Source: Bacillota bacterium (lineage in GTDB: Bacteria; Bacillota; DTU014). Taken from it: a stretch of 64,000 nucleotides of DNA. The position numbers and the translations under genes are program-made. The stretch is taken from NCBI GenBank assembly GCA_012719595.1, contig JAAYAB010000034.1:32902-96901 (forward strand), written 5' to 3'. Below the pieces are notes generated by a model, which was not told the DNA's origin, searched no databases, and saw nothing but the letters and a program-made list of their open reading frames with translations. Of the stretch, positions 6,231-12,292 are shown piece by piece (position 1 is the stretch's first letter; every line of letters begins with the position of its first letter).

Positions 6231-6329
6231 GTCGTCTCTCCCTTCTCCTCCGGAATCGAGATCATTACCTCTCTATTGATTCTCTGGCCGCCATGTGTTT
6301 CCTCTATCGCCACCCGAAAGACCGCCGTG

Positions 6330-6338
6330 TGCTATAAT
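6330..6338 (+). promoter_or_regulatory. Extended -10 element (TGCTATAAT) upstream of the methyltransferase gene
   Basis: Perfect TGnTATAAT with no good -35. Followed by a roughly 70-nt GC-rich hairpin-prone leader ending in a GGAGGGGG SD. Confidence 0.3.
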
Positions 6339-6416
6339 ACCCATGGAGGGACAACCCTGATCCGCCCGGGCCGGTCCCGAATCGGCCTGGCTTCAGCGCA
6401 CGGAGGGGGCACGCAG

Positions 6417-7328
6417 ATGAGTGATTCGTTCAGGGAACAGTGCTTCATGTGCGACGATGGGGCAACCCGCATTCGGCTGGTGCTCCAGGACTGTATGGAA
6501 GGCATGATGTCTCTGGTCGAACCCGAGAGCGTCGATGTCGTCGTCACGTCACCTCCGTACAACATAGGTGTGTCCTACAGCACCTATGATGATACGATCG
6601 ACAGACCGACCTATCTGGATTGGCTTCGCTCATGGGGAAAAGCCGTGCACAGCCGCCTGTCCGCCGACGGGTCGCTCTTCCTCAACATGGGAGGCAAACC
6701 CACCGATCCATGGATCCCATGGGAGGTCGCCTTTACGCTGCGAGACACCTTCAGCCTGCAGAATGTCATCCATTGGATAAAGGCGATATCGATCGACAGG
6801 GACTCGGTCGGACAGCAAGTAGAGCTGAGCAACGACATATCCGTAGGTCACTACAAGCCCATCACCAGCGAGCGGTTTCTGAACGACTGTCACGAGTACG
6901 TGTTCCACTTCACGAAGCATGGCAAGACGCCCATTGACAGACTGGCGGTAGGTGTGCCGTATCAGGACAAATCGAACATCGGACGATGGGAGTCAGCCAC
7001 CCAGGATCTTCGGTGCAGAGGCAATACGTGGTTCATCCCGTACAAGACTATCCAGAACCGGCAAAAGGAGCGCCCCCACCCGGCTACGTTTCCGCCCAGG
7101 CTGCCGGAGATGTGCATCAAGCTGCACGGACTCGAGCGCTGCCGGCTCGTGATGGACCCATTCCTGGGCATAGGCAATACGGCTATGGCCTGCTTGAGCC
7201 TGAGGAAGGCATTCATAGGCTTCGAGCTGGACGAGAACTACTTCGACGACGCGGTGGCCAGGGTGTCATTGGCGTTGTCTGCAGGCCGGGAAGGCCATCC
7301 TTCACTGTTTGACGATATCGAGCCCTGA
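6417..7328 (+). CDS. Beta-class DNA amino-methyltransferase (SPPY motif IV, N4-cytosine or N6-adenine). Apparently an orphan.
   Basis: VVTSPPYNIG (motif IV) precedes DPFLGIGNT (FxGxG motif I), and HPATFP is present. ATG at 6417 follows GGAGGGGG. No endonuclease-like ORF flanks it. Confidence 0.8.
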   Translation: MSDSFREQCFMCDDGATRIRLVLQDCMEGMMSLVEPESVDVVVTSPPYNIGVSYSTYDDTIDRPTYLDWLRSWGKAVHSRLSADGSLFLNMGGKPTDPWIPWEVAFTLRDTFSLQNVIHWIKAISIDRDSVGQQVELSNDISVGHYKPITSERFLNDCHEYVFHFTKHGKTPIDRLAVGVPYQDKSNIGRWESATQDLRCRGNTWFIPYKTIQNRQKERPHPATFPPRLPEMCIKLHGLERCRLVMDPFLGIGNTAMACLSLRKAFIGFELDENYFDDAVARVSLALSAGREGHPSLFDDIEP

Positions 7329-7431: not shown

Positions 7432-7683
7432 TTACCTCTTCGCCTGCGCCGCGATCTCCTGCAGGCATGCTGCACATACGTTCTTGCCCTTGATCTGCTT
7501 GATGTCACTCGCGTTGCCGCAGAAGACGCAATCCGGAGCGTACTTCTTGAGGATCACCTCTTCGCCGTTGACGTATATCTCCATGGGATCTTTTTCGGCG
7601 ATCCCCAGGGTTCTTCGCAACTCAATCGGCAGCACGACTCGGCCTAGTTCATCCACTTTTCTGACTATTCCTGTTGACTTCAT
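7432..7683 (-). CDS. abrB: AbrB-family transition-state regulator
   Basis: MKSTGIVRKVDELGRVVLPIELRRTLGIAEKD is near-identical to the AbrB N-domain. SD GGAGAGGGG. The C-terminus carries four Cys. Confidence 0.9.
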   Translation of the reverse strand: MKSTGIVRKVDELGRVVLPIELRRTLGIAEKDPMEIYVNGEEVILKKYAPDCVFCGNASDIKQIKGKNVCAACLQEIAAQAKR

Positions 7684-7955
7684 CCGATATTCCCCTCTCC
7701 CTAAGGTATACTATACAGAAGCATTATAGCACAGCTGGTATCATGAGGACACGCAGCCGCGTTCCTCATATATCTCCCATCATTGTCACCTGCATACATC
7801 AGTCATGATTACCAACTTCTCTCTACAACAAGCTCTGAATTTCGACGTAATCTGTTCTAGTTTGACATAATTCGACACAGACTGGATATTGCAAGCCCAT
7901 GGTCTGCAGCGGCACTAAAGAAACCCATGCTAAAGAGCCCGTTCCGCCGGTCTCG

Positions 7956-7984
7956 TTGACAGGGCATGTCCACAGTGCTAGAAT
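7956..7984 (+). promoter_or_regulatory. Near-consensus sigma-A promoter for the UPF0016 gene
   Basis: TTGACA (7956-7961), a 17-nt spacer, then TAGAAT (7979-7984), in an AT-richer intergenic region. Confidence 0.55.
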
Positions 7985-8015
7985 GCGGCTGTTCGGCATG
8001 TTGGGGGGCTCGTGC

Positions 8016-8585
8016 ATGGAAGCATTCACCTCAGCTCTACTGATGATAACCCTCGCGGAAATGGGAGACAAAACGCAGCTGATGGCTCTGGCGCTTGCCA
8101 GCAGATATCCTGTGGTGCAAGTGATCCTGGGAGTGTGCCTTGGCATCTTGACGACTAATCTCGTGGCCGTGGCAGGTGGAACGATCATTGGCGAGGCGCT
8201 CCCTGTGACGCTGGTGCGGCTTGTGTCAGGCGTGGCCTTTCTTGGTTTCGCAGCGTGGACTCTGCGTGACCGGTGCAAGGACGAAGCATGCACCGTCAAC
8301 GACAGGCTCCCCTGCTTCCTGGCAGTCGGGAGTGCGTTCTTCCTGGCAGAGCTCGGCGACAAGACTCAACTCACTGCCCTCGCACTCGCAGCCGACTCAG
8401 GTGAGTTCCTCTCCGTATGGGCTGGGTCGAGTCTGGGCATGGGGCTCGCGGCCGCGCTGGCAATCGCCATAGGGACGCTCGCACATCGGCGTCTGCCTGA
8501 GCGGGCAGTCAAATGGGTGTCAGCGGGTGTCTTCGCCCTGTTCGGAGTACTGGCCATCGCCGATGGTCTGACCGATCTGCTCTGA
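8016..8585 (+). CDS. UPF0016 (GDT1/TMEM165/MneA-like) putative Mn2+/Ca2+ cation transporter
   Basis: Two E-x-G-D-K-T motifs (AEMGDKTQL, AELGDKTQL) in a membrane protein. ATG at 8016 follows TGGGGGG. Upstream ORF-track residues lie before the promoter. Confidence 0.8.
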   Translation: MEAFTSALLMITLAEMGDKTQLMALALASRYPVVQVILGVCLGILTTNLVAVAGGTIIGEALPVTLVRLVSGVAFLGFAAWTLRDRCKDEACTVNDRLPCFLAVGSAFFLAELGDKTQLTALALAADSGEFLSVWAGSSLGMGLAAALAIAIGTLAHRRLPERAVKWVSAGVFALFGVLAIADGLTDLL

Positions 8586-8834
8586 CTCCTCTGATGGTTC
8601 GCAGCCTGCGGGCTCACGCCGGATGTCCGCCAGGATCTCAAGGATTTCCTCCTTGTAGTCTGCCGGAGCGTACACTGCGCCCCAGCCCTTCTGGACCTGG
8701 TATATCCCATCATAGGCTGAATCACGGTAAGACCTGAGCGTGTGAGGGATTGACCTCTCAACCAACACCGAACCGAGCAGCCCTGCCTCGATCTCGTTCT
8801 CGATGGTTGCCACCTTCACTGTCTCGCCCGACAT
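8520..8834 (-). CDS. DUF2007-like small protein (putative signal-transducing protein)
   Basis: The pattern VKVATIENEIEAGLLGSVLVERSIP...DGIYQV...AVYAPADYKEEILEILADIRR fits the DUF2007 fold. ATG lies 9 nt after AAGGAGG. The C-terminal tail overlaps the convergent UPF0016 gene by 65 nt. Confidence 0.5.
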   Translation of the reverse strand: MSGETVKVATIENEIEAGLLGSVLVERSIPHTLRSYRDSAYDGIYQVQKGWGAVYAPADYKEEILEILADIRREPAGCEPSEESEQIGQTIGDGQYSEQGEDTR

Positions 8835-8950
8835 CGGCTTCACCCTCCTTGAGCAGTCCGAGAACTCCTAACGCACTTAGTATCTGGTACGGAGCACGGT
8901 GTATCTGCCACTCCTCGTGTCGCCGGAGACTATACCAGTTACACACTTGC

Positions 8951-8988
8951 GAAAGACAAAGGGCCCGGCCTTCGTAAAGCCGGGCCTC
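8951..8988 (-). terminator. Rho-independent terminator downstream of the toxin gene
   Basis: Minus strand reads GGCCCGGC-UUUACGAAG-GCCGGGCC followed by UUUGUCUUUC. Confidence 0.6.
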
Positions 8989-9007
8989 AAATAGTTGCCC
9001 GTTTCTC

Positions 9008-9442
9008 TCAGTCATCTGATGCCCCGAAGATCTCCAGGATTGCTTGCATGATCTCTGCTTGCTTGGAGTCGGACAGCACTCCTAGGTAGTCGCCGAGGTC
9101 AGCGCGTAGAATCGGTTGCATCAGTTTGAGTCGAATAAGTACAGGCTTGCTTATGGCTTTTTCTTCTTCGGGAAAGAGCTCAATGTCATGACGACGCTTG
9201 ACATCAGTCCGACTAGTTAACGGAGCAACCAAGACTGTAGGGAACGTCGTGTAGTTCGTACGATCATTTTGCACAATCACGACCCGCCTGTGATCATGAT
9301 AAGTCCTTGTGCCCCTAACCCTATCGGCATCTGGTATGCTGATCAGGCGGTCGCTGACCAAATACACCTGTCCAAACTCAACTTCCCTATTGACGAAGAT
9401 AGCTGCCGGAAACGGATACGGTTCTAGTTCTGGAGAAGGCAT
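9008..9442 (-). CDS. MazF/PemK-family type II toxin (endoribonuclease-like)
   Basis: GQVYLVS...RRVVIVQND...TVLVAPLTS pattern of PemK/MazF. ATG follows GGAGGG. Its start overlaps the stop of the upstream antitoxin gene by 19 nt. Confidence 0.65.
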   Translation of the reverse strand: MPSPELEPYPFPAAIFVNREVEFGQVYLVSDRLISIPDADRVRGTRTYHDHRRVVIVQNDRTNYTTFPTVLVAPLTSRTDVKRRHDIELFPEEEKAISKPVLIRLKLMQPILRADLGDYLGVLSDSKQAEIMQAILEIFGASDD

Positions 9443-10068
9443 TCTGTAGCCCTCCGCCGAAGGTCTTCGAACTCTCTGTAGGTCTCAAGGAGTGCCGCGA
9501 AATACTCCTCATCAGAGCCTCGATCTGGGCTGGCATCCAAGCGGCACTTAGCAGCGGCAAGTTCGCCTCTGGTAAACTTCTTCGGGGTCTTGCCCTTTTC
9601 CATATTGATCCTCCTGGGAAGAACAGTGTATCCTAATTCTGCCTCTTCAGCAAGGATCTCATCCATGGGGGGAGTAGAATACGCAAGTTCTTTTATCTGC
9701 TTCAGGCTCAGTCTTGACGTGGCGTCTACTAGAGCAAGAGCCGTCCTCTTTTCCCACTCGGGCAAATCATACTGAGCTGCTCGGGAGGAATCTGAAATGA
9801 CATACTCGTACAGTATGCAATCTGAGTCGATATCATGACGAGTGCAGCTAATCACACCAGTCGAACAAAGGAATTCGGCTTCCTCAAGGATGGACGGAGA
9901 AAAAGGGCCGTATTTGTCGCGAACGAAGCTCACTTCGCTGTACTGGCGCCCCCGGATTTGGACTTGCTGATACTCAAACAGGTATATCAACTTGACGAGT
10001 TCGGTTCGGGTTACGAATCGTGGGAAGTGACGGATGAAGAATACGATAAGATTCCTCAGCTTCTCCAT
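9424..10068 (-). CDS. Panacea (SocA/DUF4065)-domain antitoxin
   Basis: N-terminal TRTELVKLIYLFEYQ...GRQYSEVSFVRDKYGPFSPSI matches the Panacea-domain consensus (KLQKLLY...G.P...Y.AW.YGPV). SD GGAGAAG. Local GC (about 50%) is lower than its neighbours. Confidence 0.6.
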   Translation of the reverse strand: MEKLRNLIVFFIRHFPRFVTRTELVKLIYLFEYQQVQIRGRQYSEVSFVRDKYGPFSPSILEEAEFLCSTGVISCTRHDIDSDCILYEYVISDSSRAAQYDLPEWEKRTALALVDATSRLSLKQIKELAYSTPPMDEILAEEAELGYTVLPRRINMEKGKTPKKFTRGELAAAKCRLDASPDRGSDEEYFAALLETYREFEDLRRRATECLLQN

Positions 10069-10295
10069 ACCAATCGTCTTCTCCAGTGTTTTCTAGTGGA
10101 GCATTCTACACCATGTTCCAGGAATCCTCCCTTGTCTAGAGTGATTCAGCCCAAGAGGATCCCGTCAGCTCATCGCATGTGCAGAAGCGGCTGACACCTC
10201 AAAATCACCGCAGCCCCACAAAAAAAGAGCTACGAAACCTTGTCCAGCGTTTTCTACCTTGCCGGACGTGCCGTAGCATTAGTCTGTCAATAAGA

Positions 10296-10380
10296 TGGTG
10301 CCCGGGACCGGACTTGAACCGGTACGGGTTGCCCCACACGCCCCTCAAACGTGCGCGTCTGCCAATTCCGCCACCCGGGC
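10296..10380 (-). tRNA. tRNA-Leu (anticodon GAG)
   Basis: 85-nt type II tRNA with acceptor stem GCCCGGG/CCCGGGC, anticodon loop UUGAGGG, long variable arm, T-loop GGUUCAAGUCC, and an encoded CCA. Confidence 0.9.
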
Positions 10381-11545: not shown

Positions 11546-12292
11546 GTGAGCATGTCAATGATGGATCGAGCGACTCAGTACCTCAGGAAGCACTTCTGGC
11601 AACCGATCACCAAAGCAATCAAGCGGTTCAACCTGATTCAGGACGGCGACCGGATAGGCGTGGGTCTGTCCGGAGGCGTAGACAGCGCTGCTCTGCTGTT
11701 CGCCCTTTCCTCGCTGCGCAAGCGCGCACCCGTTTCCTTCGAGGTGGTCGGCCTCCACGTTGACGCCGGCTACGGCGTTGACGCCCGAATGCTGGAGACC
11801 CTGTGCAGCCTGGCGGAAGTGGAACTCCATGTCGCGCAGGCGCCGATCGCAAAGGTGCTTGAGGCGCGCTCTGCGGATACGAGTCCATGCTCGCTGTGCG
11901 CGAATCTACGCCGCGGCGCGCTCAATACCCTCGCCAAATCCAAGGGGTGCAACAAAACCGCTCTCGGCCACCATTCAGACGACGCTCTAGAGACGCTCCT
12001 GCTCTGCATGATGTACGAATGCAGAATTGCGACATTGAAGCCCTTGTCGTACCTGGACCGGACGGGCATCACTCTTATCCGGCCGCTCATTCTGGTGCGC
12101 AAGGAGGCGATCCAGAGAGCCGCCAGTCACTATGGGCTCCCGTGGGTCGCCAACCAGTGCCCCTACGAGGGCAAATCCAAACGCGCCACTGTCAGAGGGC
12201 TTATCAATCACATCGACACGATCGAGCCCGGTGCAAAGGCAAGGCTGATGGCGTCTCTGCTCAACGTCGACGTGGACAGCCTATGGACGTGA
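11546..12292 (+). CDS. ttcA: PP-loop ATPase, tRNA 2-thiocytidine synthetase TtcA-like
   Basis: GLSGGVDS PP-loop, CSLCANLRRG, and C-terminal CPYEGKSKR. Confidence 0.7.
   Translation: MSMSMMDRATQYLRKHFWQPITKAIKRFNLIQDGDRIGVGLSGGVDSAALLFALSSLRKRAPVSFEVVGLHVDAGYGVDARMLETLCSLAEVELHVAQAPIAKVLEARSADTSPCSLCANLRRGALNTLAKSKGCNKTALGHHSDDALETLLLCMMYECRIATLKPLSYLDRTGITLIRPLILVRKEAIQRAASHYGLPWVANQCPYEGKSKRATVRGLINHIDTIEPGAKARLMASLLNVDVDSLWT

Follow-up and report, generated by a model that had tools for sequence, protein, structure and literature searches.

Introduction

PemK/MazF-like toxins are among the partners of Panacea-domain antitoxins described by Kurata et al. (2022, PNAS), where they form clusters such as T5 and T6. 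Two of these toxin-antitoxin (TA) pairs, from P. moraviensis and B. ruminantium, carry distant EndoA/PemK/MazF-like toxins and were validated in that study, the toxins inhibiting translation; the PemK/MazF-like clusters of the dataset are organized antitoxin-first. The Panacea antitoxin, PanA, neutralizes its partner via the Panacea core or via appended N- or C-terminal elements, e.g. the two-helix Phd-C (Ernits et al. 2023). Here we describe a two-gene locus, panA-panT, in a 64-kb stretch of contig JAAYAB010000034.1 of a Bacillota bacterium (GenBank assembly GCA_012719595.1); this whole stretch is referred to as the window, and coordinates are given in it unless another contig is named. The pair is best read as a bicistronic type II TA operon of the PanA/PanT class that was acquired horizontally, a reading to which the sequence evidence lends a probability of roughly three in four.

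The pairing of a Panacea protein with a MazF-like toxin is already known (Kurata et al. 2022), and both genes are already correctly named in GenBank, panT as 'type II toxin-antitoxin system PemK/MazF family toxin' (NLU40933.1) and panA as 'SocA family protein' (NLU40934.1). What is new here is the exact extent of the cassette, its history of gain and loss and the phage context of its relatives, and its status as an islet is the strongest new result.

A Panacea-domain protein and a MazF/PemK-like partner

The gene panA (9424–10068, minus strand) encodes a protein of 214 aa that matches the Pfam family PF13274 (SocA_Panacea) just above threshold, with 26.6 bits against a cut-off of 25.7 (E 1.2e-5). 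The same domain is matched in 12 of the 13 members of the PanA family, with a best E of 1e-10. An AlphaFold (AF2) model built on the family relatives has a predicted local distance difference test score (pLDDT) of 86.9, the C-terminal 55 residues being lower (60–80), and its predicted helix 21–39 followed by strands 49–51 and 54–56 corresponds to the published Panacea layout, in which a central helix precedes a small sheet. Residues G54-P55 are invariant in the family and match the 'GPV' signature of Kurata et al., the third position being F, Y or M and not V. Among viral proteins (BFVD), the best fold matches of PanA include a phage protein named for its Panacea domain, and the closest solved structure is the C-terminal toxin-binding domain of DarG from the M. 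tuberculosis DarTG system (PDB 7yk3; ~11% sequence identity). No MazE, PemI or AbrB domain was matched in PanA by the domain search, so that the pair does not qualify as a canonical MazEF system.

The Panacea core of PanA spans approximately residues 1–145 and is followed by a conserved helical C-terminal extension of ~70 aa (~146–214). This extension consists of two helices and carries the motif DRGSDEEY...LRRRA..CLL, which takes the form (D/R)RG(S/T)DEEY...R(R/E)RA..C across the family and is retained even by a phage copy of PanA that is only 38% identical. Neither the isolated extension nor the N-terminal extension of PanT, described below, gave any Pfam match.

The second gene, panT (9008–9442, minus strand), encodes a putative MazF/PemK-like endoribonuclease toxin of 144 aa. 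It matches PF02452 (PemK_toxin) with 46.3 bits against a cut-off of 23.1, and its family profile matches the S. aureus MazF structures (4mzm) with E 2e-8, and also MazF6, PemK and EndoA. Alignments place R52 on the catalytic Arg of MazF and T76 on the catalytic Thr; R52 is invariant across 21 relatives, and the T76 column holds T or S in most of them and A in one. The equivalent catalytic residues of B. subtilis MazF are R25 and T48. Compared with a canonical MazF, PanT has ~18 extra N-terminal aa and a beta1-beta2 loop longer by ~9 aa, ~27 residues in all. The long loop is common to a wider 'long-loop' subfamily (71 clusters at E <= 1e-10 among 1.84 billion representatives), and the N-terminal PYPFP motif is limited to the close family. 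A MazF/PemK fold is thereby suggested for PanT by its sequence profiles.

The close family is rare, with eight toxin and 13 antitoxin clusters (at 90% identity) among 5.8 billion proteins; so far it comes from metagenomes only, mostly of anaerobic digesters (Bacillota).

Operon organization

The two genes overlap by 19 nt (9424–9442), and the Shine-Dalgarno sequence of panT, GGAGGG (9450–9455, minus strand), lies 7 nt before its ATG, within the conserved RRRA codons of panA. This arrangement is repeated in six other loci, with overlaps of 13–22 nt, and the embedding of the ribosome-binding signal in panA codons implies that translation of the two genes is coupled. Upstream of panA, inspection of the sequence revealed a -10-like hexamer, TAGAAT (10103–10108, minus strand), which is the same in the alignment with the closest relative, a homologous locus on another contig (L011), and may be a promoter element of panA. 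The operon ends in an intrinsic terminator (8951–8986, minus strand) formed by an 11-bp stem (8986–8962) with eight GC pairs and a subsequent T-rich tail, CTTTGTCTTT. Its folding free energy is -21.1 kcal/mol (z = -3.7), an equally good fold was obtained in none of 200 shuffles, and the terminator is conserved in L011.

Between the window and L011 the ratio of non-synonymous to synonymous substitution (dN/dS) is 0.13 for panA and 0.09 for panT, which indicates purifying selection on both genes. Both open reading frames (ORFs) are intact, and they are identical in at least 21 contigs from many samples.

The locus had been singled out in an original prediction made from the sequence of the window, and most of what was then claimed stands: two overlapping minus-strand genes lie downstream of a tRNA-Leu(GAG) gene at the expected positions, the Panacea and PemK domains were both recovered when Pfam was consulted, the second of them by sequence profiles, and the terminator is as clean as described. 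The 'N-terminal insertion' that had been noticed in the toxin turns out to be the N-terminal extension together with the longer beta1-beta2 loop.

An acquired and losable islet

Nucleotide composition sets the pair apart from its surroundings, as had been predicted. Its guanine-plus-cytosine (GC) fraction is 0.501, against a mean of 0.587 (sd 0.020) over 1061-nt windows of the 64 kb; windows with a value this low make up just 0.4% of the total and without exception overlap the gene-pair locus. The panA-panT locus is the lowest-GC kilobase within the 64 kb. At third codon positions (GC3) the values are 0.52–0.56 for panA and panT and 0.67–0.76 in all neighbouring genes.

The limits of the unit were set by homology with L011 (blastn and alignments), which defines a transferable cassette of ~1.25 kb (8883–10130, minus strand) comprising the promoter region, panA, panT, the terminator and a tail of ~80 nt. 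The part of this tail past the terminator (8883–8950, minus strand) is ~68% identical to L011; it is neither tRNA-like nor significantly structured. The idea that the tail is a structured RNA or riboswitch found no support, with fold z values of -0.05 and -0.99 for two sequences and no Rfam family. The cassette lies 3' of the tRNA-Leu(GAG) gene (10296–10380, minus strand; called by ARAGORN, Rfam RF00005 tRNA 47.8 bits), in the same orientation as the tRNA, and just two genes stand between the core genes and this tRNA in the window.

Syntenic relatives were reached via homologues of the neighbouring Ldh protein: L105, a sister species (Ldh 92% identical, GCA_025563055.1), L108 (76%, GCA_049651925.1) and L115 (79%). 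In L105 and L108 the gene order is PolX, ferredoxin, TilS-like, Ldh, tRNA-Leu(GAG), a small ORF, GDT1, AbrB-like, methyltransferase and three M42 peptidases, with no TA genes; L115 has the same order up to the small ORF, where its contig ends, and likewise no TA genes. In both L108 and L115 the tRNA and the small ORF are ~85 nt apart, and nothing in this interval resembles the cassette. Two further scans gave no additional relatives: with Ldh against genome contigs, only homologues no more than 51% identical were found among the matches listed, and with the conserved pattern of the tRNA flank against metagenomes, four chance matches were found in unrelated AT-rich contigs.

In the sister species L105, homology to the window runs up to 10156 and begins again from 8886, and the span 8887–10155 is missing except for a scar of 51 nt (L105:7255–7305) that matches the central part of panA (window 9561–9511) with 90% identity. 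The cassette ends that had been set independently from L011 are no more than 25 nt and 4 nt away from the outer ends of the deletion at 10155 and 8887, respectively. As the span missing from L105 is approximately the span shared with L011 (8883–10130), a unit of ~1.25 kb is defined. The panA scar, in turn, indicates that the two species inherited the cassette from a shared ancestor and that L105 subsequently lost it in two deletion steps. Both deletion junctions are flanked by short microhomologies.

A single lineage therefore presents three states of the same site: apparently never occupied (L108 and L115), occupied by an intact cassette (the window) and reduced to a scar (L105). These comparisons with relatives lacking the insertion support the view of the cassette as an acquired, losable islet, and conservation across the site with host-like GC, which would have spoken for a resident gene pair, was not seen.

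Recurrence of the pair and its link to phage

Pairs of panA and panT were seen in at least seven contexts with unrelated flanks, among them the window and the loci L009, L011, L013, L016, L018 and L118, and in every locus the GC of the pair is 5–14 points under that of the host locus. In L009 the pair lies beside a restriction-modification-like cluster (Vsr/Dcm/DUF4928), and in L018 it is within a primase-bearing element. In L011 it stands directly after tRNA-Leu(GAG), as in the window, but between genes for QRPTase and an M78 peptidase. In L013 it is ~2 kb downstream of tRNA-Arg and next to an S24/helix-turn-helix (HTH) repressor; the DNA directly after this tRNA-Arg (L013:2252–2630) retains part of a DNA methylase sequence, untranslated and with a stop after the motif ...HLVVTSPPY, which is a further sign of a decayed mobile element. 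In L016 the toxin (L016:5816–6097; L017:1326–1607) has shrunk to 93 aa through an in-frame deletion of its catalytic core (approximately residues 75–127) and the antitoxin of 227 aa is intact, which is the order of decay expected for an active toxin.

The clearest mobile context is the viral contig L118 (IMGVR_UViG_3300033145_001682), which carries, in order, an amidase, a holin, panA, panT, a tRNA-like element, a tyrosine integrase, a CI-like S24 repressor and a Cro-like gene. The tRNA-like element (L118:7275–7367) comprises a T arm, the 3' strand of the acceptor and CCA, and its match to the tRNA-Sec model (29 bits, E 0.001) is below the gathering score of this member of the Rfam tRNA clan; the element is probably the core of the phage attachment site (attP). 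The CI-like repressor is 39% identical to the repressor beside the pair in L013. L118 was found with the antitoxin alignment, and the toxin scan of viral contigs found nothing. In the plasmid collection PanA had no match, and in the phage GenBank collection only canonical MazF-like matches were found, none with a Panacea neighbour.

The mobility that had been proposed for the pair is borne out by its presence in unrelated contexts and its absence from the same syntenic site in relatives, and horizontal acquisition of panA-panT is supported. The related proposal of a tRNA integration hotspot is supported only indirectly. In its favour are the second copy linked to tRNA-Leu(GAG), in L011, and the tRNA-like site and integrase of the phage L118; the window itself has neither an integrase nor an attachment repeat, and the direct repeat of the tRNA 3' end that had been expected near the distal boundary was searched for and not found.

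From the relatives, and not from the window locus itself, the window copy is most likely the remnant of a tRNA-integrated prophage. The pair would have arrived as an accessory ('moron') gene pair, proximal to the attachment site, of a temperate phage that integrates into tRNA genes, and integration would have produced the order tRNA-int-...-lysis-panA-panT-attR. An interior deletion could then have left the tRNA followed by the TA genes, as in the window, with the rest of the prophage lost. Such an entry would have occurred in the common ancestor of the window species and the sister species, which would then have lost nearly all of the TA genes too.

Proposed mechanism and alternative explanations

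By the proposed mechanism, panA and panT would be transcribed from their own promoter and translated in a coupled manner. PanT would act as a ribosome-independent endoribonuclease that uses Arg52 and Thr76 to cut single-stranded RNA, thereby arresting translation. PanA would bind PanT directly and keep it inactive. Contact could be made by the globular Panacea domain or by the partly flexible C-terminal helical extension, a 'linear neutralization' in the sense of Ernits et al. (2023). The latter is favoured because the extension is predicted as two helices of lower confidence and its motif is kept even in the phage copy, and because Ernits et al. provide a precedent. If PanA were depleted, as could happen when the element is lost, during host shut-off or under phage attack, free PanT would stop growth. 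A bolder proposal, which we consider doubtful, is that the extension represents a previously undescribed MazF-neutralizing module on Panacea, analogous to the C-terminal tail of MazE and paired with the long-loop MazF subfamily (~70 clusters at 50% identity), and that the cassette is a moron of prophage attachment sites through which abortive infection is switched on when Panacea senses a phage.

Whether the pair serves chiefly for addiction or stabilization, or for defence, is a refinement of the TA reading and not its opposite. A module for abortive infection or superinfection exclusion, in which a Panacea sensor frees the RNase on infection, is suggested by the position of relatives in accessory spots of prophages and mobile elements (between the lysis genes and the integrase in L118, in the primase element of L018 and at the restriction-modification-like cluster of L009) and by a weak match of PanA to the PADLOC candidate system PDC-M19A (25.4 bits). 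A sensor role for Panacea has been proposed, and defence has been validated for some TAs of the network (Ernits et al. 2023). On the other hand, no defence-system hidden Markov model matches the toxin and that match of the antitoxin is weak, and the window copy lies outside any defence island, among core genes conserved in relatives, so that a defensive role is tentative and overall not the expected one. The founding member of the domain family suggests another mode of action, of SocAB-like type VI, in which PanA would be a proteolytic adaptor bringing the toxin to ClpXP or a similar protease. Panacea was first characterized in SocA, whose name the NCBI annotation still carries, and adaptor and direct-binding modes need not exclude each other (Kurata et al. 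2022). However, all PanAT pairs tested by Kurata et al. and Ernits et al. behaved as type II systems with direct binding, the window toxin is MazF-like and not SocB-like, and the solved structure closest to PanA is itself a toxin-binding domain, that of DarG; adaptor function appears very unlikely.

Decay is the other question, since nothing else of the presumed element is left, the pair has disappeared from the sister species, the L016 toxin is broken and the family is tiny. All this would fit an inert relic, left behind by a mobile element, decaying and no longer active, which we nevertheless judge unlikely: identical, intact ORFs recur in the many contigs of the window species, the low dN/dS values against L011 are those of constrained genes, and the catalytic residues, the Shine-Dalgarno sequence, the overlap and the terminator are all conserved. 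The cassette is real and probably functional. At the opposite extreme, the locus is fixed in every contig of the window species that was seen, as would be expected of a native, vertically inherited core regulator, i.e. a housekeeping MazEF-like stress module. This is hardly credible and already contradicted by the comparison with relatives, as the syntenic slot is empty in L108 and L115 and the pair is deleted in L105, its GC and GC3 are far under those of the neighbours, and homologues occur in unrelated contexts including phage.

Several points weigh against the reading of panA-panT as a horizontally acquired type II TA operon, or against parts of it. The Panacea score of PanA clears its cut-off by 0.9 bits and would be marginal alone, and the AF2 model of PanT, made from an alignment of seven sequences, reaches a pLDDT of only 36, with the SH3-like barrel not modelled. 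PADLOC gave no match for panT and for panA only the weak candidate-system match mentioned above. A consensus scan of the region upstream of panA called no sigma-70 promoter and found no consensus -35. In the window there is no integrase or site-specific recombinase, no att-type direct repeat and, at the distal end, no tRNA-like fragment. The tRNA-Leu linkage common to the window and L011 could reflect common descent with rearranged flanks instead of site-specific integration. Toxicity, RNase activity and neutralization are predicted functions, and a defence role for the window pair is conjecture.

A tRNA fragment had also been sought in the ~80-nt tail on account of its TGGCAGA and CCGTACC motifs; the candidate was rejected, the alignment being no better than those of shuffles, with no repeats of 10 nt or longer and no tRNA-like Rfam match at E <= 10. 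Exact repeats of the tRNA of 10 nt or more were absent downstream of it in the window, in L011 and in L013.

The tRNA gene, its flanks and the neighbouring genes

Upstream of tRNA-Leu(GAG) the consensus scan identified a sigma-70 promoter matching at 12 of 12 positions (10456–10428, minus strand). Directly 3' of the tRNA, a flank of 37 nt (10259–10295, minus strand) is common to L011 and the sister species L105 and has no alignable counterpart in L108 and L115, the relatives that lack the cassette; from the tRNA through this flank (10380 to 10259) the window is 91% identical to L011 (blastn), and the flank may be of element origin. Between the tRNA and the cassette there is a terminator-like hairpin (10208–10235, minus strand; folding free energy -18.0 kcal/mol, z -4.9).

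An 18-nt direct repeat, 16 of 18 positions being identical (TAGAAAACRCTGGASAAG on the minus strand), is found at 10239–10256, just past the tRNA flank, and at 10078–10095, directly upstream of the panA start codon; the proximal copy is partly conserved in L011. Since PanA is winged-helix-like in its N-terminal part, the repeat could be an operator, or else a chance occurrence.

The variable arm of the tRNA-Leu occurs in two alleles among the relatives, GGGGCAACCC in the cassette-bearing clade (A) and CCCGCAAGGGG in the cassette-free clade (B). In the window the 5' half of the tRNA is the sequence of L108 and the variable arm resembles L011, a 'mosaic' that would fit integration in the anticodon loop and is explained equally well by divergence of the clades. 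The same gene holds the contig ends of six independent short-read assemblies of related species (L106, L107, L112, L113, L114 and L116), which fall in or just before the segment from the anticodon loop to the variable arm (window 10336–10350), one of them in the anticodon stem. These ends could be due to co-occurring species or mark the crossover point of an integration.

Among the neighbouring genes, an 83-aa protein of AbrB/SpoVT type (7432–7683, minus strand; Pfam MazE_antitoxin, 46.6 bits) has a Cys-rich, zinc-ribbon-like C-terminal tail and no adjacent toxin; because the syntenic relatives keep this protein too, it probably acts as a regulator and not as an orphan antitoxin. An N4/N6 DNA methyltransferase (MTase; 6276–7328, plus strand) matches the PADLOC type II MTase model with 342 bits and has no restriction enzyme gene beside it; its conservation in L105 and L108 suggests that it is a core orphan methylase. 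The small ORF of 104/107 aa (8520–8843, minus strand) and the gene for the GDT1-family transporter (7899–8585, plus strand) converge with an overlap of 66 nt (8520–8585), and are called alike in the relatives. The gene for the TilS-like ATP_bind_3 protein (window 11546–12292, 244 aa) is split in L105 (5135–5850) into two called ORFs (94 and 144 aa), neither with a Pfam match, and may there be a pseudogene or the product of an assembly error.

Comparison with known systems

Existing knowledge of TA systems is left unchanged by the window pair. It could help in studying how TA modules persist after the loss of the elements that carried them, with the phage relative indicating where such cassettes travel, and it offers a test of whether Panacea neutralizes MazF-type RNases via an appended C-terminal peptide.

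With MazEF, PemIK and Kis-Kid the pair has in common the PemK/MazF toxin domain, the equivalents of the catalytic Arg and Thr and a bicistronic, antitoxin-first, overlapping operon, whereas its antitoxin is a Panacea protein and not a MazE or PemI of AbrB/SpoVT or ribbon-helix-helix type. With SocAB of Caulobacter it shares the antitoxin domain family PF13274; SocB, however, is a DnaN-binding toxin and SocA a ClpXP adaptor, so that a PemK/MazF-like partner sets the window pair outside that system. Unlike DarTG, it has neither a macrodomain nor DarT. Prophage 'moron' TA and exclusion genes are found beside attP and int, and the L118 pair is likewise placed between a holin and a tRNA-like site with integrase, whereas the window retains the TA genes only, with no integrase, repressor or att repeat.

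The closest described systems are the PanAT pairs of Kurata et al. (2022). As in those, a Panacea antitoxin is combined with an EndoA/PemK/MazF-like toxin, antitoxin first, with a small overlap and a link to mobile elements. The PanAT features that were checked, namely PF13274, the Panacea layout and a conserved two-gene neighbourhood, are all present in the window pair. Its distinguishing traits are the direct Pfam PemK match of a toxin with its own N-terminal extension and lengthened beta1-beta2 loop, and an antitoxin whose ~70-aa C-terminal extension is not among the named PanA accessory domains (PAD1, Phd-C, ZBD/MqsA and HTH; Ernits et al. 2023).

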